Of a stretch of DNA of 64,000 nt, positions 5,227-20,836 are shown piece after piece. A program made the position numbers and the translations under genes. The notes beneath the pieces were generated by a model that had not been told where the DNA came from, ran no database searches, and saw only the letters and a list, made by a program, of their open reading frames with translations. Position 1 is the first letter of the stretch, and every line of letters begins with the position of its first letter. The DNA comes from a virus (lineage: Duplodnaviria > Heunggongvirae > Uroviricota > Caudoviricetes). The stretch lies in IMG/VR virus record IMGVR_UViG_3300006899_000574; one strand, 5' to 3'.

Positions 5227-5492
5227 GACTCGCGCTGGGTTCCAGCGTCAGCGCAATCCTGGTGCGTACGGAATTTTGCCACACCCAGGCATACCATTGC
5301 CCGTTCTCCAGCCAGATGATCTTCTGGACCCCCGGCTGATCCCAGGCCGCCCTTACGGAATCCGGAAGTGATACGCGGTGTCCACATCCGCCGCAAAACT
5401 GCGTAGCCCCGCTCCTGCCAGACCAGCGAGAGCTTCTCGTAGGTCTCAAGTCTGGCTTCTTGTTGTTGAATAAAGAACGGTGAAAGGCTCAT
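5223..5492 (-). CDS. hypothetical protein (start at MSLSPFF, ATGA overlap with the ThyX stop)
   Basis: ORF plus coupling. Confidence 0.35.
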   Translation of the reverse strand: MSLSPFFIQQQEARLETYEKLSLVWQERGYAVLRRMWTPRITSGFRKGGLGSAGGPEDHLAGERAMVCLGVAKFRTHQDCADAGTQRES

Positions 5493-7393
5493 GATTTTTT
5501 CTCCAGAATCTTCCTGAATTGTACTACCCCAGCAGGTAGATTGCCTGACATCCATGGGTCAAGAACAATTTTCTTGTCAACTCCCCAGTCGCTACGCGGG
5601 GCCAGCCAGAACGCCAGGTCGGGATGCATGACCTGCATTTCAGCCGGTGAGTTCCCTGACACACAAGTTTTTCCATTTCTACGAACAATGAGTAACCCAG
5701 TCGAAACTGTGGCACAGTAGACCTCTCCTGTATATTTGATCTTAGAGAAGTTCTTACGTAGATGTCTGGAGTCGTTGAGGATCGACGAGGGCCTACGGCA
5801 CAGATTTAAGGAGAACACGGGTTGGGACTTGTGTGAACGTCGGTGTCGGTTCCCTTGTCGTAACGAAAAATTGTATCCATGTAGTGCCCCCAAGGTTTGG
5901 ATCTGATCTGCTAGTTTCGGACTAGTAGTCGCATACGTCCAAGTGTGCCTTTTGATGCTTCCGTCGGAATTTTTCAAGCCGTCCATCAGTGCGTGAACAA
6001 ACTCTGGAGAAGACTCATATATCCCATCAGGGAGACATTTTTGCCGATTGATATCATATAGCAAAGTATGGAATTCCTTAGCGAGACCGTCTCTCGCAAC
6101 CCAATAGGTGTTGTAATGCGGTTTTTCTACTAACTCAAAATTCAGGGTCTTACATATTGCGCGCAGATACGCAATTTTGCGAGGTTTCTTCAAATGGAAA
6201 GTTAACCTGCGGCCTCCGTGTTGCCCTATATCACGGGGGACACTCCCATCTCCAAGAAAAAATCCAACCAGTTTACCGAACTGGGGGTCGTCCTCGCTCC
6301 ACATCAAACAGTCTACATAGTTTGCTTTGGACGTAAGCGCGCAGTTGAGCATTTTTAAAGGAGAGGCCACGACTACTTCAAAAGGCGATTTTGCTACCCT
6401 TTCATTTGCAGGCCTGAGAGAGAAAACCTGACTCCCCCAAGGTTTTGAGGCATAGATCTGATGAGAGGGAGTGATCATCAAATTAAACCGGTGCGAAACT
6501 ATATGATACATCTCTTCATTGATCAGGCTATAGGACAGGAGTTGAGCTGGCCGTTCGAACCCCTGAAATTTTGAATCCCGAGGGTCCACGGTAGCTAAAC
6601 TATCATTTGTCTGAACGTTAGGCCACTTGATGAACCCTCTAGTTGTAAGCACCTCTGTCTCCGCGTCATAACAGGCGTGGATCGGCTGACTGCCGACGAG
6701 CTTCTGGTAGGTCCAGAGGTCATCTGCTATGGTGCTGGGCTTGTTGTTGCGCAGATACGAAACCCTCGCACAGCGTGCCACTGATGTCCGGATGTCTTGC
6801 AGGATCTCCGGTACGTTCTTTTCTACATACAATCTGTACGCATGCGTACGGCGGTCATCCACGTAGGGCAGGTGGATTTCGCGACGTGTCGGCGTGCTTA
6901 CGGCGAACGCATCGGCCATCTTCCGGGCCAATATCTGCATGTCGTGCTGGGCATCGCCATGGAGTCTGAGGTTGAAGAAGTTCTGTAACCCCGGAAGGCC
7001 AGTCGTCATTACAACTCTGACGTAGAGAAAGGGCTCCAGGAGCCTGTTGCAGATTTCCTTGTGGACCCCGAGTGCGTGCAGACATCCGGCGAACATCTTC
7101 GCACAACGCATGGCGGCTTTCCATGTCAGCCTGGCGACGGCATCCCGCCAGCCCGTCATATCAGCCCGAGGTTGCATGCCGGGGCCATTGACGGGGAACT
7201 CCGCCGGCACGTAGCAACAGCTCAATAGCAGAGTCTTGTGTGGCACTGCACGAGATGACGCCGCCGAGCGCGAGAACGTTCTGTGCGTATTGAGTTGCGC
7301 CAATAGGAAGCGCGGGAAGCACAGCTCGAACGTCAGAACGCGGACGCCATTGATGCTGGAGTCCAGGATGAGCTTTGCAGACGTCACGTTCAT
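5489..7393 (-). CDS. thyX: flavin-dependent thymidylate synthase ThyX, interrupted by an intein
   Basis: N-extein FELCFPRFLLAQLNTHRTFSRSAASSRA and NFFNLRLHGDAQHD align to the ThyX core (T. maritima [29 protein letters not shown] / NFLNLRADSHAQWE); the intein is described in the next feature. Confidence 0.6.
   Translation of the reverse strand: MNVTSAKLILDSSINGVRVLTFELCFPRFLLAQLNTHRTFSRSAASSRAVPHKTLLLSCCYVPAEFPVNGPGMQPRADMTGWRDAVARLTWKAAMRCAKMFAGCLHALGVHKEICNRLLEPFLYVRVVMTTGLPGLQNFFNLRLHGDAQHDMQILARKMADAFAVSTPTRREIHLPYVDDRRTHAYRLYVEKNVPEILQDIRTSVARCARVSYLRNNKPSTIADDLWTYQKLVGSQPIHACYDAETEVLTTRGFIKWPNVQTNDSLATVDPRDSKFQGFERPAQLLSYSLINEEMYHIVSHRFNLMITPSHQIYASKPWGSQVFSLRPANERVAKSPFEVVVASPLKMLNCALTSKANYVDCLMWSEDDPQFGKLVGFFLGDGSVPRDIGQHGGRRLTFHLKKPRKIAYLRAICKTLNFELVEKPHYNTYWVARDGLAKEFHTLLYDINRQKCLPDGIYESSPEFVHALMDGLKNSDGSIKRHTWTYATTSPKLADQIQTLGALHGYNFSLRQGNRHRRSHKSQPVFSLNLCRRPSSILNDSRHLRKNFSKIKYTGEVYCATVSTGLLIVRRNGKTCVSGNSPAEMQVMHPDLAFWLAPRSDWGVDKKIVLDPWMSGNLPAGVVQFRKILEKKS
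5651..6673 (-). mobile_element. intein with LAGLIDADG homing endonuclease inside thyX (about residues 241-581)
   Basis: Block A CYDAETEVLTTRG, block B TPSH, two LAGLIDADG motifs (LVGFFLGDGSV, HALMDGLKNSDGSI), block F/G VYCATVSTGLLIVRRNGKTCVSGN followed by Ser. Confidence 0.55.
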
Positions 7394-7605
7394 CTTGCCT
7401 CCTTCTGCGCCAGCGCCGCTATTACTTTTTCTTTTAACGGTTGGAATCTTATATCCTGTTTATTCAGGATGTAGTTCTCATGATGAGACTCGCCGTCAAA
7501 ATGAGGCGTGTCATGGATTTTGTGCATCTTCTTCAGATACGTCCGTAACCGCGCTTCAGACATACGGGAAATCTCGACATCAGTAACAATACGCACGGTC
7601 TTCAT
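7390..7605 (-). CDS. hypothetical protein
   Basis: 71-aa ORF, ATGA coupling on both sides. Confidence 0.4.
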   Translation of the reverse strand: MKTVRIVTDVEISRMSEARLRTYLKKMHKIHDTPHFDGESHHENYILNKQDIRFQPLKEKVIAALAQKEAR

Positions 7606-7973
7606 CTTGATATCTCTACGGCGGCTCGATAGGCCTCAGCGATTTCACGCAGACTGTAGATATCCAGTGGGTTTTCTTCCTGTGCTCCTCTTGCAGTCAA
7701 CATCCTCGGTCTGACGATCTGTTCGATGGCTTCCGTAGTAGGAAGTATCTCAAAGCCCTCGCCCCAGGTTTCGTCGTTGATGTCATCCAGTTCGACGAAG
7801 TTAAACTCATACTTGAACGCCTTCCAGGCGAGATCGGAACTGCTCTCCCATTGCGGCCACTCGTCGTCTTTGCTGACGAACTGCTCGTAAGTGATGGGCG
7901 GCGTGATTACAGGCAAGTCTTTCAGTTTGACGACTCTGCCCTTGAACTTGTCTTCATATGTATTGTAAGTCAT
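7602..7973 (-). CDS. hypothetical protein
   Basis: 123-aa ORF, coupled. Confidence 0.45.
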   Translation of the reverse strand: MTYNTYEDKFKGRVVKLKDLPVITPPITYEQFVSKDDEWPQWESSSDLAWKAFKYEFNFVELDDINDETWGEGFEILPTTEAIEQIVRPRMLTARGAQEENPLDIYSLREIAEAYRAAVEISR

Positions 7974-8461
7974 GCTGGTTTGTCCGTGGATTTCTCCTCT
8001 GAAGTCCGCAGAGCCGGCCAGGGGTATCGTTTATCATTTCCAAGTTCGTCTAACGCCGCTTGTAAGGCGTCGCGCCGGGCAAAATATATCTCTGTGTTTG
8101 TCCGATTCTTAGAATAGCCGCAACATATGTAAGTTTCTCCTACATGATTCAGGTTTAAGTAGTAAGGGTAAGGCACACGGTCGAGATTAGGCGGGTTCAG
8201 CTTATCTGCGTAGTAGCGAATAATCGCCCACGCGATGGCATGCTTGCTGGCCCAGATAACTTGCGCTCGGGTTGTATAGGCCCAGCGCAGGCCGAGTTGC
8301 GGCCCTGTATAGCCGAGACTCGGGTCCAAAAGAAAGCCCGGCACATACCCGGGTGCCCCCCAGGGTAACTCCAGTGCGGGGCTCTTCATCATCAGCCGCT
8401 GGAGTTCCTCCTGTATGTCTTGCAATTGTTTCTGAAGCTCTGCGATTCGTGTTGAGTCCAT
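7970..8461 (-). CDS. hypothetical protein
   Basis: 163-aa ORF. Confidence 0.45.
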   Translation of the reverse strand: MDSTRIAELQKQLQDIQEELQRLMMKSPALELPWGAPGYVPGFLLDPSLGYTGPQLGLRWAYTTRAQVIWASKHAIAWAIIRYYADKLNPPNLDRVPYPYYLNLNHVGETYICCGYSKNRTNTEIYFARRDALQAALDELGNDKRYPWPALRTSEEKSTDKPA

Positions 8462-8464
8462 CTT

Positions 8465-9346
8465 TTACTCCTCGATGACATGCTTGCCGTAGAGCGCAAT
8501 CAAAATCTCCCACCACTTGCGCTTCCACAACGGAAGCCTTTCGCCCACGTGTGTGGCGATCTCTTTGATCTCTCTGGCAGAGAAGAGGTAGAAAACGGTC
8601 GTAGGTTGTTGCACGGGCTCCGAGTGCTCTTGCAGGATGAGTCTCCAGGGATGTATACCGGACTCCACCAGGCCCCGGTATGGCCCTCCTGTGATTACCA
8701 GTTGTCGGAACGTGCGGTGAGCGGGCGGTGGATCTATTTTGACAGGCTGGACTTCCACCCAGGCGTGAGCAAGCAGTTGCGTCGGGTAACTCGTGCGAAC
8801 AATGCGTAATACGTTTTCCGCAGTCACATTACCTTCGGGGGTGACTTTTGATACCGACTCCTGGTGATACTTGCGCTGGTTTTCCAGCAGGGTTTGTGCA
8901 ATGCGCTGTCTTTCGGCTTGACGCTCTGCGCGCCTGCGCTCCTCGTCCTGCCGACGTTCTGCGGACATCGGGACAACAGTGCCCTGGCGTGAGAGCAGGT
9001 GGAAATCCGGTAGTCCGAAACCAAAATTGCCGTCGTTATCCAACTCGACGAATTGATCATCGACGGAAGTCGCAAAGTTTCCGATAAACTCGGGTGTGAT
9101 ATCCGAGTGCTGGAGGGACTCCGTTGGCCAGTAATAGTAGAAACCTCCGATCTCGAATTCAATTTCTTCGGCTGTCTCCGCAGAGGTATCCCAGTGGACA
9201 CTGACCTCGTGGTCTTTGACTGTACGCAGACACAAGCCGTCGCTGTCAATATTGAAAGCCACTCCATTGATCACGCCGGCGTTAATACTGCCGCGCTTGA
9301 TGGCGCCAAAGATGCGCTTACTCGGGTAGTTGATGTCGTCTGGCAT
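8465..9346 (-). CDS. hypothetical protein
   Basis: 293-aa ORF. Confidence 0.5.
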   Translation of the reverse strand: MPDDINYPSKRIFGAIKRGSINAGVINGVAFNIDSDGLCLRTVKDHEVSVHWDTSAETAEEIEFEIGGFYYYWPTESLQHSDITPEFIGNFATSVDDQFVELDNDGNFGFGLPDFHLLSRQGTVVPMSAERRQDEERRRAERQAERQRIAQTLLENQRKYHQESVSKVTPEGNVTAENVLRIVRTSYPTQLLAHAWVEVQPVKIDPPPAHRTFRQLVITGGPYRGLVESGIHPWRLILQEHSEPVQQPTTVFYLFSAREIKEIATHVGERLPLWKRKWWEILIALYGKHVIEE

Positions 9347-9401
9347 GTCGTCCTCCGGGCGAGCGAGGCTTCAGCGTTTCCCGAAGCCCCACTCTGTGTT
9401 C

Positions 9402-10214
9402 TTACTTAATACCGATGAACGGCAGAGGCGCTTGTTCTCCGAGATAAATAGGCATGACACCGTTCCATTTCTTGATGGCTTCCGCCTGATTCATGACGCG
9501 CAGATACTCCAGAGTCTGGCCTCCGGAGCTTTGAGTGCGAAGCCTGTTGGCTTCTGACTCTCCTCGTGCGCGTGCAATGTTGGCTTCTGCTTCTGCCTTG
9601 GCGGCCTCGGCATTTTGTTGCGCCTTCATCTTGTTGTTGAGCGCTTCTTGAACTTCTTCGGGCGCCTGAATGCGGCCGAGGATCGTGACGTTCTCGACGT
9701 CAAACCCCTCAGCAGAGACGGCTTCTTTCACCATACGGTTCACGCGTGCGATGAATTCAGTCTTCTTGGGACCATTGATTTCATCGTATGCCATCGTGGA
9801 GGCCGCTTGATTGAACTTGTCCTGTACGATGTTTCGTAGATAGACATTGGTGATGAAGTCCATGCCGTTGCGGTGACGCTGGAAAATAGCAGATACAGAT
9901 TCCTTTCTGATTGAATACGATACGCCCACATCAACCTTCAGGCTCAAGCCGTTGAAGTCGTTGAAACGAATGGCCTCGTCTCCTGGGTTGCCGTCACTAC
10001 TGTCTGCTGACCATCGCACGGTTTGCACGAAGATCGGAAACGTGTAGAGTTCTGTATTCCAGCTCGGCCAGTAGCGCCCCACACCAAGAACCTCCTGGTC
10101 CACTCCTTTATCACCTCCCAGCTTGTTGACTCTGATGCCAACGTACCCGGGCTCCACGTAATTGCAAGCCGACAGCATGACTGCTGTCATCAGCAATAGA
10201 ATTGATTTTCTCAT
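9402..10214 (-). CDS. SPFH / band-7 family lipoprotein (HflC/prohibitin-like)
   Basis: Lipoprotein signal MRKSILLLMTAVMLSAC; SPFH core followed by an Ala/Glu-rich coiled coil (KMKAQQNAEAAKAEAEANIARARGESEANR). Confidence 0.7.
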   Translation of the reverse strand: MRKSILLLMTAVMLSACNYVEPGYVGIRVNKLGGDKGVDQEVLGVGRYWPSWNTELYTFPIFVQTVRWSADSSDGNPGDEAIRFNDFNGLSLKVDVGVSYSIRKESVSAIFQRHRNGMDFITNVYLRNIVQDKFNQAASTMAYDEINGPKKTEFIARVNRMVKEAVSAEGFDVENVTILGRIQAPEEVQEALNNKMKAQQNAEAAKAEAEANIARARGESEANRLRTQSSGGQTLEYLRVMNQAEAIKKWNGVMPIYLGEQAPLPFIGIK

Positions 10215-10465
10215 TTTGAATCCTCCTCTGGTTTCAGAAATTTGTTATAGATCCAGTAACCCGCCCCCACTGCCCCGAGGATCAGTAGCAGTGCTGGCCA
10301 GACGAACGACAGCACGCTTAACGCCACGGAGCCGATAACCAGTCCGCCGCCTAACTCCACGGCGTCAATCTTCTTCCGGTCGTAAAGACGGAGAAGCAGG
10401 ACAGTGCCGCCTGCAATGGTGGACACTCCGGTTATGATCGCTCCCATCAGCCACCACCAGGGCAT
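10211..10465 (-). CDS. small integral membrane protein (start taken at internal MPWWW)
   Basis: Two to three hydrophobic helices; ATGA coupling. Confidence 0.4.
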   Translation of the reverse strand: MPWWWLMGAIITGVSTIAGGTVLLLRLYDRKKIDAVELGGGLVIGSVALSVLSFVWPALLLILGAVGAGYWIYNKFLKPEEDSK

Positions 10466-10650
10466 CAGGGGCTCTCCCGAAAGAATTTCCGCACTCGGCC
10501 TGCGATCCACGCAATCGCGAGGTAAACCAGAACGATAATAATTCCGGCTCCCGCAACCACAAATTCCGTCTGCTGAGAAGATATGAGTTCGGGCAGGACC
10601 AGGCCCACCAGTATCAGGAGCCCGATTGTCAGTAACAAAATTTTATGCAT
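10465..10650 (-). CDS. small membrane protein
   Basis: 61 aa with two hydrophobic helices. Confidence 0.4.
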   Translation of the reverse strand: MHKILLLTIGLLILVGLVLPELISSQQTEFVVAGAGIIIVLVYLAIAWIAGRVRKFFRESP

Positions 10651-11206
10651 GTGACACCTCCTCTTGGGAGCCGGCGGCCAGTCTGCGGCTCGCGAGTTCC
10701 TGCATTTCTTCCGGTGTTAATTTCGTAACCGGGTGTTCTGCGGCAAACTTCTTGATGGCTTGCGCTAGGTGCCTGCCCTTGGACTTTGCACTCAGCATCT
10801 CCTGGTAATGCTCGTTTGAAACGTTGCTGTATCGATAGACGTGTCCGGAGCGGAATTCCACAAACAGTGTGTTGGCTTCGTGGGCGATGGCCCTGATGTT
10901 GCTGGACTGTACTTCTGTGAATTGAATCATTTGTCCAAACCTCTTTTTTTCTCTTTTTTTCATCCACCAGTCAAAAGCTCTTGCAGGCGGAAAAAATTGG
11001 CGACGCACTACCAGCTTGAGCAGAATAACGGGCAGTATGAGAAACCAGATCAAAGCGAGCATTACATTCTGCTCGTAGTCAATACCACCTCCGTCTCGTC
11101 GCCACCAATCGTAATTTTGGAGATCCAGATAGCAGATCACCCAGTAACCCAGAGTGTAACCTGCCGCATAGATGACGACGATGATAGCGACAACAAGCGC
11201 AGTCAT
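10643..11206 (-). CDS. membrane protein with C-terminal KTSC domain
   Basis: VQSSNIRAIAHEANTLFVEFRSGHVYRYSNVSNEHYQEMLSAKSKGRHLAQAIK fits the KTSC consensus; the N-terminus is hydrophobic. Confidence 0.6.
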   Translation of the reverse strand: MTALVVAIIVVIYAAGYTLGYWVICYLDLQNYDWWRRDGGGIDYEQNVMLALIWFLILPVILLKLVVRRQFFPPARAFDWWMKKREKKRFGQMIQFTEVQSSNIRAIAHEANTLFVEFRSGHVYRYSNVSNEHYQEMLSAKSKGRHLAQAIKKFAAEHPVTKLTPEEMQELASRRLAAGSQEEVSHA

Positions 11207-11466
11207 CACGGCTCCACCACGCACACAATGCTCGTGGCTTCGAAGATATAGAAATTCTTGCCCTCGACTGTGATCGTCGCCATCCTGGCGCCGCGTGCCC
11301 ACATCACTCTGTCTCCAACCGCGATGCCTTCCACTTCTTGCCCTACCGAGACCACGGTAGCAACCCGGGTTTCGTCGGGCTGTAACTCCACGATTCCCGA
11401 TGCCCGTGTGTGTTCGGTCTTTACTTCATCCAGTTCCAGGATGACTCTCTTACCCAGTGCTTGCAT
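11206..11466 (-). CDS. GroES-like co-chaperonin (Cpn10 / T4 gp31-like)
   Basis: 86 aa; the pattern LGKRVILELDEV...ASGIVEL...ATVVSVG...VGDRVMW mirrors the GroES beta-barrel layout. Confidence 0.5.
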   Translation of the reverse strand: MQALGKRVILELDEVKTEHTRASGIVELQPDETRVATVVSVGQEVEGIAVGDRVMWARGARMATITVEGKNFYIFEATSIVCVVEP

Positions 11467-11478
11467 TTGTGTATCCTC

Positions 11479-12933
11479 CTACTGCATGCGGAAGGCTCCC
11501 TGGATGGCGTTGATCATTGACCGCTGGCCATTTGCATACAGGAGACAACTGCTGTGAAGCCAAGAAGATGCGTGACCCTTTGTGTAGTCAAGATTTAATC
11601 TTGTTGTGGTGCCCACCACCCAGAGCGGTGACAGGATCTGTGGAGAGTGGAAGTGCCCGCAGATCGCCGGCCCAATGTTGCGCAGACTCTGCACGCCGCC
11701 ACGACTGCCGTTGGGGCCCTTGTCGCCGTGGCTTGCAAGCTGAATGCCGCAGACCTTGTAGTCCTGGTCGCGGCGCAACCACGTCGTCTTTTCGTCTTTG
11801 AAGCCCCGCTCCTTCAGGAACCACTCGATGGGATTGGAATGTCCGCTGAACATTGCTTCCAGCATGCGGTTACCGATGCGCAAGTTGTGGTCTTCCTTGA
11901 AGTGCTTGAGTGCCAGGATATGACGGTCCAGGAATTCGTTGTGGTTGGAGGCCACCATGAGGAACTCCGGTTTGGGAAACTTCCTTCTCCATAACTCCAG
12001 CGTGCTCTGCACGGCTTCGATCTCGGTCTCAATGCTTCTGAACTTCTCGGGCCTGCTGAGTCTCGCCACGACGTTGTGCTCCAGATGGTGGTTGGTAGAC
12101 AGCTGGTCAGCGAAGTCGTGAAACGCGATCCTGCGGGGCTTCACAAGCGCCGCGAGTTCTTGCCAGGCGAGGACCGCCATGGGGTCTTCACTGCCAACGT
12201 GGTAGTCGCCAATTACGAGAGCCTCCACTACAGCAGGCTTCCTCGTGTTTTCGACATAATAGGTTTCGAGATCATTGAAGCCACCGCTTTCATCCGCCTG
12301 GATCTGCCGGACGTGGAACAACACATTGTCCTCTACCTCCACGATGAGGCCGCCTACGACGTGGTCCTGCTCCGCCAGCATCCCCGCTCGTGTGCGGGCG
12401 TAGTTGTCGGCTACCGTGATGGCGCCTGTAGACAGCAGGAGATGCGGAGTGGCGAGATTGCTCACGGGCGTTGTGCGCATGTGCTGTTTGGGGTGCGCGA
12501 CGATCAGCGAGCGGTCTTTCTGACCCAGGCGGTCGAGTCCCAGGAGCGGCTGTTGTTGCTGTGGATACAGCATGAGATCCAGCGCCTTCAGGTTGGAGTT
12601 CAACACGTAGTCACTGACGAAGTGATTGGCGAATTGCTGAAGCTCCCGTGGATACATCTGGTTGGTCTTCGAAACCCCGCGCATCGGCAGGATAACGAGC
12701 TGTGCCTGTCTGTGCTTGCAGTAAGCCTGGGCTGTAGCAAAAAAGGCGTGATGCAGGGCCTGGCCGCCTACGGCCGATGCAAGGAGATAACGGCGGCGAG
12801 ATTTTCTCCGGCTGTCGTCTCGACTGACGTCAAACTCCTGACGACTGAAAGGCTGATCTTCTACTGGGATGTCTTCTGATTGAGGGGTAGGCTTCTTGTT
12901 GGAGATTGTCGATTTCGGCTTCTTCCCGCGCAT
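11479..12933 (-). CDS. calcineurin-like metallophosphoesterase (SbcD/Mre11-class fold, function unknown)
   Basis: VIGDYHVG, ASNHNEF and ICGHFHSP motifs. Confidence 0.55.
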   Translation of the reverse strand: MRGKKPKSTISNKKPTPQSEDIPVEDQPFSRQEFDVSRDDSRRKSRRRYLLASAVGGQALHHAFFATAQAYCKHRQAQLVILPMRGVSKTNQMYPRELQQFANHFVSDYVLNSNLKALDLMLYPQQQQPLLGLDRLGQKDRSLIVAHPKQHMRTTPVSNLATPHLLLSTGAITVADNYARTRAGMLAEQDHVVGGLIVEVEDNVLFHVRQIQADESGGFNDLETYYVENTRKPAVVEALVIGDYHVGSEDPMAVLAWQELAALVKPRRIAFHDFADQLSTNHHLEHNVVARLSRPEKFRSIETEIEAVQSTLELWRRKFPKPEFLMVASNHNEFLDRHILALKHFKEDHNLRIGNRMLEAMFSGHSNPIEWFLKERGFKDEKTTWLRRDQDYKVCGIQLASHGDKGPNGSRGGVQSLRNIGPAICGHFHSPQILSPLWVVGTTTRLNLDYTKGHASSWLHSSCLLYANGQRSMINAIQGAFRMQ

Positions 12934-13017
12934 GCGTCCTCCGCACTTAACGTGCGTTTACTACACACAACTAGCGGAATCTCTGATAGCCTGTCAACGC
13001 ATATCTGTTGAAATTGT

Positions 13018-13758
13018 TTAGTTTTTTTTACGATCTGGTGTGTATGTGATCATCGCGCTCACCTGGTCGTCGTGCGCATCTCCGTAGATCACGCCATCTG
13101 AGGCCACGATCAAGTTGTCGCCAGGATTCAAAGACATCGATAACGGCATCAGTGAGATGTCCTGTTTGCCAATGATAATGTGGTGCGTCGGTAGCTCCTC
13201 CACGGGGCCGCCGGTGCACCGCTGGACGAATAATCTGTCGATACCGCCGGCATACAACACCTGTCCATCTGCGCGTAACCACATCACCAGAGCCAGGGCT
13301 TCTCCGCCATTTTCTCTGCCGATATCATACAGTCCGCGATTCATGGCCTTGAGGATTTCTACCGGGTCTTTCTCCCGTAGCGCGAGGAACACCACCAGAC
13401 ATGCAAAGGCCCCGGGGAACACATTCTCGCCATGACTGATGACGTCGCCCGCCACCACGAGCAGATCGCCGCCGGGGATTTCCTTGATGCGGAAAAAGTC
13501 TCCGCCCGGTAGCTGAGTGCGCGCACTGCTCCGAATATAGCAAAAAGCCGTGTAGTTGGAATAGGAGGACAGATCCTCGGGCTGAAGAAGAGACTTATGC
13601 GCCCCCGACAGCAGGGACAGCGCACGCAGGCGCTGAGCGTCGGGCAGTAATGCGGGTGACACGGGCGTCGTGCTGGCACTTGAGTCCCCAGCCGTTTTCG
13701 AGAATAGAGATAAAACCGAATCCACCCCTCTCTTTACTGCGCTCCAGAATTTTTCCAT
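13018..13758 (-). CDS. PP2C-family Ser/Thr phosphatase (SpoIIE/RsbU-like)
   Basis: GDVISHGE (DVSGHG-type motif) ... ASDGV; fold length fits a PP2C domain. Confidence 0.6.
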   Translation of the reverse strand: MEKFWSAVKRGVDSVLSLFSKTAGDSSASTTPVSPALLPDAQRLRALSLLSGAHKSLLQPEDLSSYSNYTAFCYIRSSARTQLPGGDFFRIKEIPGGDLLVVAGDVISHGENVFPGAFACLVVFLALREKDPVEILKAMNRGLYDIGRENGGEALALVMWLRADGQVLYAGGIDRLFVQRCTGGPVEELPTHHIIIGKQDISLMPLSMSLNPGDNLIVASDGVIYGDAHDDQVSAMITYTPDRKKN

Positions 13759-14032
13759 TTTGCTTCTCGTCCACTACCTGCTGAGCCGTGTCTATCTTTT
13801 GTGCTATAGCAGGCCCCATAGTAGTGTCGATCTCAGAAATAACCTCACTGCCGTTGACCTCGATTTCCCCCTTTTCTCCTGCTTTTGCTATATTCGAGGC
13901 CAGCTCAGCGGCAACGTAACGGGTATCCAGAGCAGTGTGAGGGAAGTCCCGGATCGTGCGTTGCATGTCCTGTACATCGGAGATTCCGTCAATACGGAAT
14001 CTCGCACGGTCACCTGATTTCCAGAGTAACAT
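13595..14032 (-). CDS. probable N-terminal region of the PP2C gene, separated from it by a +1 frame change at a T5 run (13750-13754)
   Basis: Removing one T from the T5 run joins ...VVDEKQNGK to FWSAVKRG... in frame; the 3' overlapping tail of this ORF is low-complexity. Confidence 0.35.
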   Translation of the reverse strand: MLLWKSGDRARFRIDGISDVQDMQRTIRDFPHTALDTRYVAAELASNIAKAGEKGEIEVNGSEVISEIDTTMGPAIAQKIDTAQQVVDEKQNGKILERSKERGGFGFISILENGWGLKCQHDARVTRITARRSAPACAVPAVGGA

Positions 14033-14600
14033 TGGACTCTTTCCCCTCTTCTGGTTTGAAATAGCTCAAGAGCTTCTGCTGGTCTTCACTGCACACCACC
14101 GTGATGGCCGGTAGCTTACGCGCTTTGGAATCTATGATGGAGATGATAGGGCTTGTGATGTTGGCGTTGACGAGGTTGATGTGAGTTTGCGTGCTCCACT
14201 GATCTTCGAGCTTCTGGTAGCCTTCGTCGCTCACGCGGTCACTGCCCCACATATCGCCGAAGATGAAGATCGCGCCTCGTGGTACCGCAAAGCCGATGTA
14301 GTCTCCCGGGCGGTCTCCCACGGGCTTTGTCCAGGCACACTGGATGGCCTGCAAGGCGGCTTCGTGCTCGCGCTTCAGCGCCTGCAACTCGGCTTCCAGT
14401 GCAGTGAGTTTCTGTGCGTGATCTCCGGCCTTGCTGATTTCCAGCGGGCCGAGTTTAATACTGGCTGAAGTCCGCAGGATCTTCCAGACCGCTACTCCGG
14501 CAACCACTACGGCGGCCAGCATGACGATCGAAGTAACCCGGGCCCCCCATGCTGAGATCATTACGTCCCAGAAAGCTTCCGGCATGCCCACAGATTCCAT
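14010..14600 (-). CDS. membrane-anchored hypothetical protein
   Basis: N-terminal TM helix followed by a coiled-coil segment. Confidence 0.45.
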   Translation of the reverse strand: MESVGMPEAFWDVMISAWGARVTSIVMLAAVVVAGVAVWKILRTSASIKLGPLEISKAGDHAQKLTALEAELQALKREHEAALQAIQCAWTKPVGDRPGDYIGFAVPRGAIFIFGDMWGSDRVSDEGYQKLEDQWSTQTHINLVNANITSPIISIIDSKARKLPAITVVCSEDQQKLLSYFKPEEGKESNVTLEIR

Positions 14601-14620: not shown

Positions 14621-16627
14621 CTATTGGATTTGCATCACTTTGAATGCCTGTCGTGCGGCATCTATCCGTTTGCGGAAATCGACGTCCGCAAAATCCGGCT
14701 TCTTGCCGCTGGCCTTATATGCCAGGCGCGTCTGTTGCTGTTCATAGCTCACCGATGGCATGTAGCCGACTTTGTGTATGCTGAAGGCGGCGTGTGCCAT
14801 GGCATCACTGACGTCCTTTGCGTGAACTCCGCATTTCGAATTCTCGAAGTCACCTCTGTAGTCGTTGACTCTCATGCCCTTGCTGTGATCAATCTTCTCC
14901 GGGCCCCTTTTGTTCTTTGCTCTCGTGCGGTAGAGGCTGTCGAGATTGTTCCTGACGAAAACATTGGGCCCCACTTTGAGTCTGCCGCTGAGCATTCTGG
15001 AGTAGAGCTGTGTATAGGGCTGGATGTCGATATCCACCGAAGACCTTACGGCATTGATGTCGTTCCTCACCAGATACTGGATGAGGTTGGCGCTTTGGTA
15101 CTGGTCAACACTGACCTGCTCGATGTGAACTCTGCCTTTGTCCCGGAGATCACGGATGAACATCTGGATGGCTTCGAGGTTGATGCCGTTGGGGCCCGGT
15201 GCCACCGCAAATGCGAAGTCGAAGATCGTCGTGGCGGTACCATCTTCCATTTGTTCCTCGTGAGCCATGGCGATGCCTGCGACGTCTCCTCGAACGCTGG
15301 TTGCCAGATCCACTCCGATGTAGCGCGGCGCTGACGGCGCGCGGATCAGCGACAGATCAACTCCGTTCCCTTTTGAAAAGAACAGGTGGCTGACGGCGTT
15401 CCAGATCAAATCCTCCGGGATGGACTTGCTGTCGGCCACAACTGAGGCTTCGACGTTGGGAAGCGTGGGGTCGAAGATCGACGCAATCAGACTGCGTTGT
15501 TGCAGGAACTTGCTCTCGCTGGTGGCGGGCTGGCCCGCGATGTCTTTGATGGACTTCAGCAAGTTGTCTTCAAAAGCCTGTTTGACATCAATTGGAGGGG
15601 ATACCACCAGACCGGGGGCGTAGTTGTGTTCCTCTCCGGGTTCCAGGATACGAGCGGGAGTCTCGCCATCCCCCACGCAGACATGGAAGACCTGGGAGTT
15701 GTCTTTGTGGTATGCGGGGAAAAACTTCTCACAGAGTTCCGGAGCATCCCACTGCTTGCGCCAGCGGAAGTATACCTCTGGCCGGTATTGCATCTTGCTG
15801 ATGATGTGCTGTTCGATCTGCGACTCCGCCAGGTTTGCCGACGTATCCAGCAGTGTGAACGCCAGGTAGTTGTTGCCAACAGTGCCTCGAATACGACTGA
15901 CGGTATCGGTGTAGATGCGGAAAATCTGCTCCTCGGTGGCCCCGGCTTTCTCGATAAAGAAGCCGATCTCTGAGATGAAGGCGCAGATGATGTTGGCGCC
16001 GATGATTGACAGCGCGTCGTCATTACCCGTCACGAGTTGCAGGCCAGATGCCAGCGTGATCTCCCCGACTCTCGCGGCCTCTGAATACACGATGATGTCG
16101 TCTCCAGCGGCTTCCTGCTCTTCTCGCACGTTGTCGCGGAAGTGTGTCTTCTGGAACCTCGGGCTCTGCTCTAGAATCTCGAACAGCGGCTGAATGTAGA
16201 GTTCATACACCTTCTCATACTTGAAGCTCATCAAGTAGATGGAAAGCGCGGAGGTTGAGATCAAATTGTAGGCCCCCGCCATGCTGGTAAGGTGGTGCAT
16301 GTAGACTATGACATACGCCATGAGCAGGACAGATCCCACGCTTTTTCCCATACGGACAGCGCCGTATAACGCCACCTGCGAATACTTTCCGCTGAGGATA
16401 TTACAGAAGTCCTCCTTGACGTGTGCAAAGAGTTTGTTGGCCACTCCCTCCGGAAGCCAGCCGTTGCGGGGGTCGAGGAACTCCTCCGGGCTGGGGGGCG
16501 GTTTGCGAAATGTGTGTCCCTGCAACTGGCGGAGCAACGCAGTGTTGCCGCCGAGGATCTCCTTCACTGCCTGCTGTTCGACGGCACTGAGCTTGTTGAA
16601 ATCAGCGGCAAGATTTTCTGGCAACAC
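14621..16627 (-). CDS. terL: terminase large subunit
   Basis: Walker A-like ATPase GAVRMGKS, C-terminal nuclease-like YIGVDLA..D; 668 aa, a gp17-like size. Confidence 0.85.
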   Translation of the reverse strand: MLPENLAADFNKLSAVEQQAVKEILGGNTALLRQLQGHTFRKPPPSPEEFLDPRNGWLPEGVANKLFAHVKEDFCNILSGKYSQVALYGAVRMGKSVGSVLLMAYVIVYMHHLTSMAGAYNLISTSALSIYLMSFKYEKVYELYIQPLFEILEQSPRFQKTHFRDNVREEQEAAGDDIIVYSEAARVGEITLASGLQLVTGNDDALSIIGANIICAFISEIGFFIEKAGATEEQIFRIYTDTVSRIRGTVGNNYLAFTLLDTSANLAESQIEQHIISKMQYRPEVYFRWRKQWDAPELCEKFFPAYHKDNSQVFHVCVGDGETPARILEPGEEHNYAPGLVVSPPIDVKQAFEDNLLKSIKDIAGQPATSESKFLQQRSLIASIFDPTLPNVEASVVADSKSIPEDLIWNAVSHLFFSKGNGVDLSLIRAPSAPRYIGVDLATSVRGDVAGIAMAHEEQMEDGTATTIFDFAFAVAPGPNGINLEAIQMFIRDLRDKGRVHIEQVSVDQYQSANLIQYLVRNDINAVRSSVDIDIQPYTQLYSRMLSGRLKVGPNVFVRNNLDSLYRTRAKNKRGPEKIDHSKGMRVNDYRGDFENSKCGVHAKDVSDAMAHAAFSIHKVGYMPSVSYEQQQTRLAYKASGKKPDFADVDFRKRIDAARQAFKVMQIQ

Positions 16628-20654: not shown

Positions 20655-20791
20655 ATAGTAACCTTTTGGTTTGTTTGATTGAGGGCCGAACTCACTCTCT
20701 CAGCCTGCGAGCCTTGGTCCGAAAATCTTAGCCGGGCTGTCGGATTCAGCCCCCTTGCGCTTTTAGTGTGGGAAGATTTCAGAGATCAGGG

Positions 20792-20826
20792 CAAAAAAAA
20801 AGCCCGGGGCAACCCGGGCTTTTCGT
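20792..20826. terminator. bidirectional rho-independent terminator
   Basis: A9-GCCCGGGG-caa-CCCCGGGC-TTTT. Confidence 0.55.
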
Positions 20827-20836
20827 CTGCCGACAT

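Follow-up and report, generated by a model that had tools for sequence, protein, structure and literature searches.

Layout of the locus

The subject of this report is a pair of genes, encoding a lipoprotein with an SPFH (Band_7) domain and a small membrane protein, together with the genes that surround them in the IMG/VR virus record IMGVR_UViG_3300006899_000574 (Duplodnaviria; Heunggongvirae; Uroviricota; Caudoviricetes). The whole stretch of DNA that was analysed, referred to throughout as the window, is 64,000 nucleotides (nt) long, and the pair lies in a run of five minus-strand genes at 9402-11466, which is bounded exactly by the SPFH stop codon (9402) and the start codon of a GroES-like gene (11466). 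Read from the minus strand the five products are 86, 187, 61, 84 and 270 amino acids (aa) in length. The original prediction, made from the letters of the sequence, had taken all five to form a single translationally coupled membrane module. The features of the locus are listed below in the direction of transcription; TM stands for transmembrane and ORF for open reading frame.

11206..11466, minus strand: GroES-like (Cpn10) gene, 86 aa, recognised by Pfam Cpn10; in the same transcription unit, outside the conserved cassette
10643..11206, minus strand: gene for a KTSC membrane protein, 187 aa, recognised by Pfam KTSC, with two N-terminal TM helices
10465..10650, minus strand: gene for the 61-aa partner protein with two TM segments, recognised by phrog_1130 and by an independent partner hidden Markov model (HMM)
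10211..10465, minus strand: gene for an 84-aa ORFan with about three TM segments, between the 61-aa and SPFH genes
9402..10214, minus strand: gene for the SPFH lipoprotein, 270 aa, recognised by Pfam Band_7 and phrog_200
9361..9394, minus strand: GC-rich stem-loop of 14 bp without a U tract, directly 3' of the SPFH stop codon

Every one of the five genes is preceded by a Shine-Dalgarno-like GGAG or AGGAGG, and along the run the stop and start codons overlap by 1, 8, 1 and 4 nt. At the head of the block the TAG stop codon of an upstream gene related to A1 of phage T5 leads into AGGAGGA, 7 nt and the ATG at 11466, the gap between the two genes being 12 nt. The GroES-like and KTSC genes meet in TGATG at 11206 (1-nt overlap, GGAG upstream), and because the KTSC start codon overlaps the GroES-like stop codon in this way the KTSC protein is taken to be 187 aa long and not the product of a 219-aa GTG ORF. 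The KTSC and 61-aa genes share 8 nt in ATGCATAA, with GAGGAGG upstream. A second TGATG, at 10465, joins the 61-aa and 84-aa genes with a 1-nt overlap and gives a product of 84 aa rather than a 99-aa GTG ORF, a length also given by the independent gene call of a 96%-identical variant protein, and the 84-aa and SPFH genes overlap by 4 nt in ATGA with GAGGAGGA upstream. The alternative GTG ORFs of 219 and 99 aa would run ~100 and ~45 nt, respectively, into the genes upstream of them. The annotated frame had the best codon usage score for all five genes, and a Kyte-Doolittle scan found two TM segments in the 61-aa protein, three in the 84-aa protein and two in the KTSC protein. The identities that had been proposed for the five genes, and their translational coupling, were thus borne out by junction reading, Pfam and codon usage; the description of two small proteins with two or three TM segments and of a TM protein with a predicted cytoplasmic KTSC domain agreed with the hydropathy scan and the distribution of charges.

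The hairpin at 9394..9361 has a minimum free energy of -26.5 kcal/mol (z = -3.1), a value that was equalled by 0/200 shuffles. It was not called in a terminator consensus scan and may represent a 3' end or boundary of the transcript, a stabiliser or a processing site. A consensus scan found no sigma-70-like promoter or canonical terminator within or just upstream of the five-gene block; consensus sites were fewer than in shuffled sequence and therefore no internal signals can be claimed. An Rfam scan of 8000-13500 gave no match.

The SPFH lipoprotein and its small partner

The SPFH protein is matched by Pfam Band_7 over residues 20-211 (4.2e-24, 86 bits against a cutoff of 23.6) and by phrog_200 over residues 5-269 (1.7e-63). 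Its N-terminus, MRKSILLLMTAVMLSAC, carries the lipobox L-S-A-C, which satisfies the bacterial lipoprotein pattern [LVI][ASTVI][GAS]C and identifies Cys17 as the lipidation cysteine; the match to Pfam LPAM_1 is weak (0.044). The lipobox cysteine is nearly invariant across the family of SPFH lipoproteins and is counted among the family-invariant residues together with W250, G252 and P255 of the C-terminal motif KWNGxLP, a region that by analogy would correspond to the crown of the solved cages. Relatives of the protein, which carry the annotation 'prohibitin family protein', were found in 369 phage records, all at <40% identity, with hosts that include Pseudomonas, Klebsiella, Erwinia, Burkholderia, Caulobacter and Vibrio, and at no fewer than 526 loci (>=526) in viral contigs. 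The best metagenomic relatives are 46-48% identical and none is above 48%.

An AlphaFold2 model made from 52 family sequences had a mean pLDDT (predicted local distance difference test) of 87 and consists of a signal helix, a beta-rich SPFH domain whose first strand begins ~3 residues past Cys17, a helix of 44 residues (186-229), a further helix (232-249) and a low-confidence tail. Foldseek aligned this model to PDB entries over 245-285 columns with E values of ~1e-13 to 1e-9, the matches being prohibitin (8rrh, 9o9z), HflK/C (7vhq, 7wi3, 9cz2), erlin, stomatin, QmcA-YbbJ (8z5g) and flotillin, so that every solved cage-forming SPFH protein is among them; the matches cover the model over nearly its full length. 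With phmmer, residues 143-256 aligned to the wall and cap region of stomatin, in entries with at least 16 chains. As modelled, the cage-type architecture is complete, with an anchor, an SPFH domain, a long coiled-coil helix and a C-terminal segment.

Comparison with the characterised SPFH systems shows both likenesses and differences. The best structural match is to the prohibitins PHB1/PHB2 (8rrh, 9o9z; E 2.7e-13), which have an equivalent topology on the side of the intermembrane space, but these are eukaryotic, heteromeric proteins with a TM anchor and are only 18-19% identical to the phage protein. HflK/HflC of the HflK/HflC-FtsH system of E. coli (7vhq, 7wi3, 9cz2) likewise have their SPFH domain on the periplasmic side and match in fold from the anchor to the C-terminal segment; they are, however, two paralogues with an N-terminal TM helix, whereas the locus has one SPFH gene whose product carries a lipoprotein signal peptide. 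Orthology with HflK or HflC was considered and ruled out, as the protein scores 23.8 bits with TIGR01933 (hflK, cutoff 159.4) and 17 bits with TIGR01932 (hflC, cutoff 134.4), far below both equivalog cutoffs. The SPFH-NfeD operons (QmcA-YbbJ, 8z5g; YqiJ-YqiK) resemble the locus in that an SPFH gene stands beside the gene of a small polytopic membrane protein, and QmcA is matched in fold. The partner in the window nevertheless has no homology to NfeD and lacks a soluble oligonucleotide/oligosaccharide-binding (OB) fold domain. QmcA itself faces the cytoplasm, whereas the SPFH protein of the window is predicted to be exported.

The protein encoded immediately upstream of the 84-aa ORFan is the 61-aa protein with two TM segments, joined by a short loop whose motif here reads LPELISSQQTE; from the positive-inside rule it would be oriented N-in/C-in, with the loop in the periplasm. 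It is matched by phrog_1130 (1.5e-5), a family that PHROGs files under 'moron, auxiliary metabolic gene and host takeover'. A partner HMM was built from the partners at other loci, with the sequence of the window left out, and this model matched the 61-aa protein (9.3e-12, 44 bits); the alignment is end to end. Applied to the 11,615 stop-to-stop frames of 85 other viral loci it matched exactly one frame per locus in 80 of them; all of these frames are on the strand of the SPFH gene, 70 lie directly upstream of it and there was no match elsewhere among the frames. The partner HMM also matched in 54 of 80 bacterial-genome loci, where the named hosts are all diderms (Leptospira, Bacteroidota, Dyella, Cupriavidus, Enterobacterales and others).

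The same association is seen when the genes are viewed without the model. When the window is added to the 85 other viral loci, 75/86 have a TM-containing ORF that ends within ~30 nt of the SPFH start, and in 53 of 57 non-redundant upstream ORFs the first TM helix is followed by the loop motif P-x-[LMF]-[LIVFM]-S. A typical partner reads G-x3-P-x-L-I-S-[SA]-x-[SD] and after this has V-x2-G in its second helix, the short form of the conserved loop motif being P-x-L-[IV]-S-[SA]. A small ORF of 45-79 aa, called a membrane protein wherever it is annotated, immediately precedes the SPFH gene in four unrelated annotated phages, the pair being found in a Vibrio phage, a Ruegeria phage, the N4-like Stenotrophomonas phage Piffle and SSU5. 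At two loci (L026 and L031) the order is reversed, the partner coming after the SPFH gene. By these sequence comparisons the 61-aa gene is the canonical partner of the phage SPFH lipoprotein. The suggestion that the small membrane proteins of the locus are partners of the SPFH protein therefore holds for the 61-aa protein, whose family stands beside the SPFH gene in 80/85 viral loci, but not for the 84-aa protein, an ORFan without the motif. That either is of the NfeD type is contradicted by the absence of a Pfam NfeD match at E<=0.1 for both, and an NfeD assignment was ruled out also on size, as both proteins are almost all TM and the 61 aa of the partner leave no room for an OB-fold.

In a number of database proteins (P0002, P0007, P0039, P0041, P0058 and P0034) the partner and the SPFH lipoprotein are fused in frame. 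The last of these, 403 aa long and with a linker of ~40 residues, has no lipobox cysteine but a plain third TM helix instead. Identical copies of it are encoded on three contigs, each from a different sample (loci L173-L175), where it sits on an integrative mobilisable element with an integrase and pRha and is flanked by NikA-like and relaxase genes; the cassette is thus not confined to phages. For the topology of the fusion to be coherent, the partner must be N-in/C-in and the SPFH domain must lie in the periplasm, on the inner membrane, which argues for inner-membrane placement. In the Rosetta-stone manner, the fusions were read as evidence that the two proteins would work together in that membrane.

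The conserved unit at the locus is a two-gene cassette made up of the 61-aa gene (10650..10465) and the SPFH gene (10214..9402). Known examples of PHROG 200 together with PHROG 1130 are SSU5_062/SSU5_061 of Salmonella phage SSU5, gp89/gp90 of Piffle and gp48 of Burkholderia phage phi1026b. Such cassettes share with the window the small gene with two TM segments immediately upstream, usually overlapping, the lipobox, the N-terminal C-S/T-K-V-P-A-G-Y-V-G and C-terminal KWNGxLP motifs of the SPFH protein and the P-x-L-I-S-S loop of the partner. The window differs from these relatives in an identity of <=48%, in the inserted 84-aa ORFan and in the N that follows the cysteine. Because both families are already in PHROGs, the cassette of the window is a divergent addition to a catalogued but uncharacterised family; as far as could be found, no description exists of the consistent pairing, the loop motif or the natural fusions. 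The literature on phage SPFH proteins yielded only annotation-level remarks and speculation on lysogeny through HflKC (PMC4936722, PMC10269572, PMC13239085). A paper of 2026 states that the reason for such a gene in a phage genome 'remains unclear' (PMC13239085), and a survey of SPFH evolution in prokaryotes makes no mention of phages or lipoproteins (PMC2636767).

The other three genes and the genomic setting

The 84-aa gene has a very narrow distribution. Its product had one match among 1.84 billion representative proteins, an 84-aa variant with 96% identity, and no other full-length relative in the searches made. The variant is encoded on an 821-nt contig from another sample (L091), which is 99.1% identical to 11012..10192 of the window. 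The two sequences differ at 7 positions, all of them inside the 255-nt 84-aa gene and 0 in the 566 flanking bases; if the differences were spread evenly the chance of this would be ~(255/821)^7, or ~3e-4. Three of the changes alter amino acids (T16A, V43S, L61V) and there are three synonymous changes. As the reading frame is kept among the substitutions the gene is probably real, and it scores +0.225 bits/codon in frame, with the other five frames negative. It is probably under relaxed or diversifying selection and changing fast, to judge from this comparison. The possibility that it is a diverged duplicate of the partner was ruled out, since it is without the motif, has another predicted topology and is not matched by the partner HMM. 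In 9 other loci as well, the partner and SPFH genes are separated by an inserted gene, and the inserts at this junction elsewhere include a 47-aa TM ORF as well as soluble ORFs, two exported proteins (236 and 308 aa) and, in E. coli/Shigella chromosomes, an insertion sequence element (junction-insertion loci L009-L011, L013, L021, L050, L055, L069, L119, L142 and L144). The partner-SPFH junction is an insertion hot spot in several lineages, and the 84-aa ORFan is probably one such accessory insert.

The KTSC protein is matched by Pfam KTSC at 5.3e-16 (58.5 bits against a cutoff of 25), with the domain at residues ~98-155, TM segments at residues 1-19 and 48-66 and a central Y-x-Y motif that reads YRY, within HVYRYSNV. 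The positive-inside rule would place the domain in the cytoplasm. It resembles known KTSC proteins (PF13619; 7x8c; the C-terminus of the HerA-domain protein 8wiv) in the KTSC domain with its Y-x-Y, the match to the KTSC domain protein 7x8c being 2.2e-6, and differs from them in the fusion of this domain to two N-terminal TM helices. No full-length relative with this architecture was found in viral contigs or phage records, where the KTSC domain alone is shared; a word-based search of 5.8 billion proteins gave nothing for it, though the window's own protein was not recovered either. The evidence leans towards a separate membrane protein with an architecture specific to this lineage.

The GroES-like protein is matched by Pfam Cpn10 at 2.2e-7 (31.3 bits against a cutoff of 21.1), its residues 2-84 aligning on profile positions 3-93 of 93, and by phrog_3188, co-chaperonin GroES (6.5e-11), and phrog_931, head morphogenesis (8e-6). 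The NCBIfam GroES models match over the full length without reaching equivalog level, the best score being 35.3 bits against a cutoff of 109. Its alignment with what we take to be the sequence of E. coli GroES is colinear, at 28% identity, and takes in both the GIV of the mobile loop and the VGD motif; the mobile-loop region reads A-S-G-I-V here against a presumed A-G-G-I-V in E. coli. A single-sequence AlphaFold2 model, made without an alignment of homologues, was all-beta and had a pLDDT of 43, too low for use. There was no relative by tblastn in phage records or by phmmer in the PDB, the word-based search of 5.8 billion proteins returned only the protein itself and a scan of viral contigs for close relatives gave none. 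The protein is thus like GroES and the phage co-chaperonins (T4 gp31; PHROG 3188 and 931) in its Cpn10 match above the Pfam cutoff and its colinearity over the whole length, and unlike GroES in its length of 86 aa, its shortened roof hairpin and scores far under the NCBIfam GroES cutoffs. From its sequence it would presumably be a stand-alone co-chaperonin that works with the host GroEL.

Whether these genes form a unit with the cassette is a separate question. That all five make up one integrated membrane module, acting as a single machine, could be argued from the run of four overlapping junctions, all with a Shine-Dalgarno site, as well as from the strong hairpin at the end of the block. 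Only 5 of the ~78 genes in the window encode proteins with at least two TM segments, and three of them stand in a row at this locus, beside the lipoprotein; this clustering of membrane proteins is unusual. The order of the KTSC, 61-aa and 84-aa genes is also kept in the variant contig L091, but that contig belongs to the same lineage at 99% identity. Overlap between genes is, however, ordinary in the window, where ~25/67 same-strand junctions (~37%) overlap and runs of 3 to 7 such junctions occur elsewhere, by crude gene calls, and because overlaps are so common the stop/start overlaps are weak evidence for a unit. On its upstream side the block is not set off by a promoter or terminator, the A1-like gene being only 12 nt away, and the established role of GroES homologues is cytoplasmic, with GroEL. 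The synteny check proposed with the module was carried out with tblastn on 165 comparison loci (85 viral and 80 bacterial-genome loci): homologues of the KTSC protein, the KTSC domain alone, the GroES-like protein and the 84-aa protein were absent within 4-5 kb of the SPFH gene in all of them (0/165), and homologues of the KTSC, GroES-like and 84-aa proteins are absent beside the closest SPFH relatives (L086 and L089, 46-48% identity). By the criterion that came with the prediction, the five-gene module is refuted as a unit of conservation. A single five-gene machine is accordingly very unlikely, and the evidence slightly favours a region made up of one conserved pair and three unrelated, lineage-specific neighbours.

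The window as a whole is a mostly minus-strand array of ~78 genes with 50-57% G+C and no tRNA genes. Megablast of the region against 50,697 phage records found no nucleotide-level relative, and scans of viral contigs for close relatives gave one distant locus for the SPFH protein and none for the KTSC and GroES-like proteins. The cassette lies between the following A1-like and ThyX genes, with a phosphatase gene further upstream.

11479-12933, minus strand: T5 A1-like metallophosphoesterase ('DNA transfer protein'), phrog_1745 at 1e-94
13018-13758, minus strand: PP2C/SpoIIE-like phosphatase, Pfam match at 4.5e-7
5489-7393, minus strand: 634-aa ORF with an N-terminal ThyX domain, Pfam Thy1 at 8e-14 and phrog_85 at 1.5e-60

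The best relatives of the A1-like gene are in jumbo phages, at <=31% identity and without shared synteny. An early host-takeover region is suggested by the presence of the A1-like and PP2C/SpoIIE-like genes upstream. In 9 other viral loci, too, ThyX lies no further than ~1-5 kb from the SPFH gene, and the neighbours of the cassette elsewhere include DNA polymerase, recombination genes, primase and ligase as well as ThyX. The cassette of E. coli VR50 belongs to a lambdoid prophage at mlrA and occupies its early-left region, with repressor-type helix-turn-helix genes on one side and ead/Ea22, xis and int on the other. The ThyX ORF of the window has an extension of ~390 aa with a weak LAGLIDADG_3 match (5e-4), which could represent either a homing endonuclease fused to ThyX or an insert of intein-like type. 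Further away, two large minus-strand ORFs have between them, at 20790-20831, an inverted repeat (GGCAAAAAAAAAGCCCGGG / CCCGGGCTTTTCGTCTGCC) that resembles a bidirectional intrinsic terminator. Most neighbouring ORFs (8465-9346, 7970-8461, 7602-7973, 14010-14600, 14621-16627 and many larger ones), including some of 500-800 aa, are without a Pfam or PHROG match, and reference collections contain very little that resembles this phage.

A possible role for the cassette

What has been observed is how the genes are built, to which families they belong, that the pair is conserved, that natural fusions of it exist and that the AlphaFold2 model has the full-length SPFH fold. From this we infer oligomerisation, a location at the inner membrane, contact of the two proteins with each other, early timing and the existence of any client. 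The interpretation preferred here, with modest confidence, is of an SPFH cage that faces the periplasm on the inner membrane, is built with the 61-aa partner and is expressed early. The region would be part of a long co-directional operon of early type in which the unit is flanked and interrupted by lineage-specific genes, and the early and replication gene context suggests that the cassette would be made early in infection. The SPFH protein, in which the lipobox is observed, is predicted to be exported and lipidated at Cys17, and its SPFH domain would then rest directly on the periplasmic face of the inner membrane. Oligomerisation through the long coiled-coil helix and the KWNGxLP segment would produce a closed dome like those of HflK/C, prohibitin and stomatin. 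The 61-aa partner would be embedded in the enclosed patch of membrane or at its rim, with its periplasmic P-x-L-[IV]-S-[SA] loop touching the membrane-proximal SPFH domain, and the cage would corral or shield components of the host inner membrane.

Several points weigh against this interpretation. The 84-aa and KTSC membrane proteins, which are coupled to the cassette, could be extra subunits in this lineage. Some of the 'fusions' may be gene-caller read-through lacking an intervening stop codon. The likeness to HflK/C is mimicry at the level of the fold only, because the scores are far below the equivalog cutoffs. The lipidated cysteine is followed by N here and in most of the family by S or T, which in enterobacteria would be expected to send a lipoprotein to the outer membrane, although the rules of sorting vary from host to host. 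A prophage HflK/C-like protein of Pasteurella multocida, which may or may not be a homologue of this family, has been found in outer-membrane vesicles (PMC9872710).

These last points bear on a different proposal, that the SPFH lipoprotein is sorted to the outer membrane and acts there in exclusion or receptor masking, much as T5 Llp, Cor or TraT do, or else serves as a surface factor of lysogenic conversion, the small inner-membrane protein being merely accessory. The prevalence of S or T, and not D, after the cysteine would fit such sorting, as would the Pasteurella protein, which signals through TLR1/2 (PMC9872710). The cassette stands beside a relaxase on the mobilisable element, such elements often carrying exclusion functions, and PHROGs places the partner family in its class of morons and host-takeover genes. 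The fusions to the protein with two TM segments, one of them with a TM anchor that replaces the lipobox, nevertheless put the SPFH domain at the inner membrane, D or Y follows the cysteine in some members and every solved SPFH cage rests on the membrane to which it is anchored. There are, moreover, only ~3 residues between the cysteine and the first SPFH strand, a spacing which to our knowledge is unlike that of tethered outer-membrane lipoproteins. Outer-membrane sorting, together with a merely accessory partner, is therefore considered unlikely. A role in the control of lysis, with the pair acting in a holin/antiholin-like manner or as a spanin-like pair that spans the envelope, is highly improbable. 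Class II holins have two TM segments, an N-in/C-in topology and a charged C-terminus, all of which fit the size and topology of the 61-aa protein, and the combination of a lipoprotein with an inner-membrane protein formally recalls the spanins. The SPFH lipoprotein is, however, a globular protein of 270 aa and not a short proline-rich o-spanin, and the 61-aa protein is without a periplasmic coiled coil. The neighbouring genes in the window have no Pfam or PHROG match to a lysis family, the rest of the window not having been scanned for an endolysin. In annotated phages and contigs the neighbours belong to replication, recombination and nucleotide metabolism, and the cassette occurs in regions devoted to early functions, replication or nucleotide metabolism rather than in lysis cassettes, which argues against a function in lysis timing. 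Membership of a defence system is not supported, as PADLOC models gave no meaningful match to the five proteins, the sole match being to Cas7e at chance level (0.0085).

If a periplasm-facing cage is accepted, what it encloses may be considered by analogy. HflK/C forms a 24-subunit cage that encloses FtsH, prohibitins associate with m-AAA proteases, and SPFH assemblies on the side equivalent to the periplasm work with quality-control systems (HflK/C-FtsH, PHB1/2-m-AAA and erlin1/2 with endoplasmic-reticulum-associated degradation) (PMC12624060). Because the characterised assemblies on that side serve membrane quality control, an FtsH-type protease is the best-precedented client, but as the specific target it is a doubtful possibility. 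The blocking of competing or incoming DNA is a comparable alternative, since the cassette occurs on a mobilisable element and in prophages. The most far-reaching version, in which the cassette would be a widespread host-takeover device, a lipid-anchored mimic of HflK/C or prohibitin that cages FtsH or another machine early in infection, is improbable. Were it true, the sequestration of FtsH would stabilise its substrates and would give a functional reason for the adjacent GroES-like gene; sigma-32 is a substrate of FtsH, and its stabilisation raises GroEL. The 84-aa ORFan would in that event be a lineage-specific subunit for specificity or counter-defence.

The cages formed by SPFH proteins (HflK/C, prohibitin, stomatin, flotillin and erlin) are a very active topic in structural biology, while the phage versions have so far been known from annotation only. 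For this window the result is mostly corrective. For the family as a whole it means that the phage SPFH protein belongs to a two-gene cassette with a dedicated small membrane partner, found in many diderm lineages and on at least one mobilisable element, and the question of what this cassette does is experimentally tractable.

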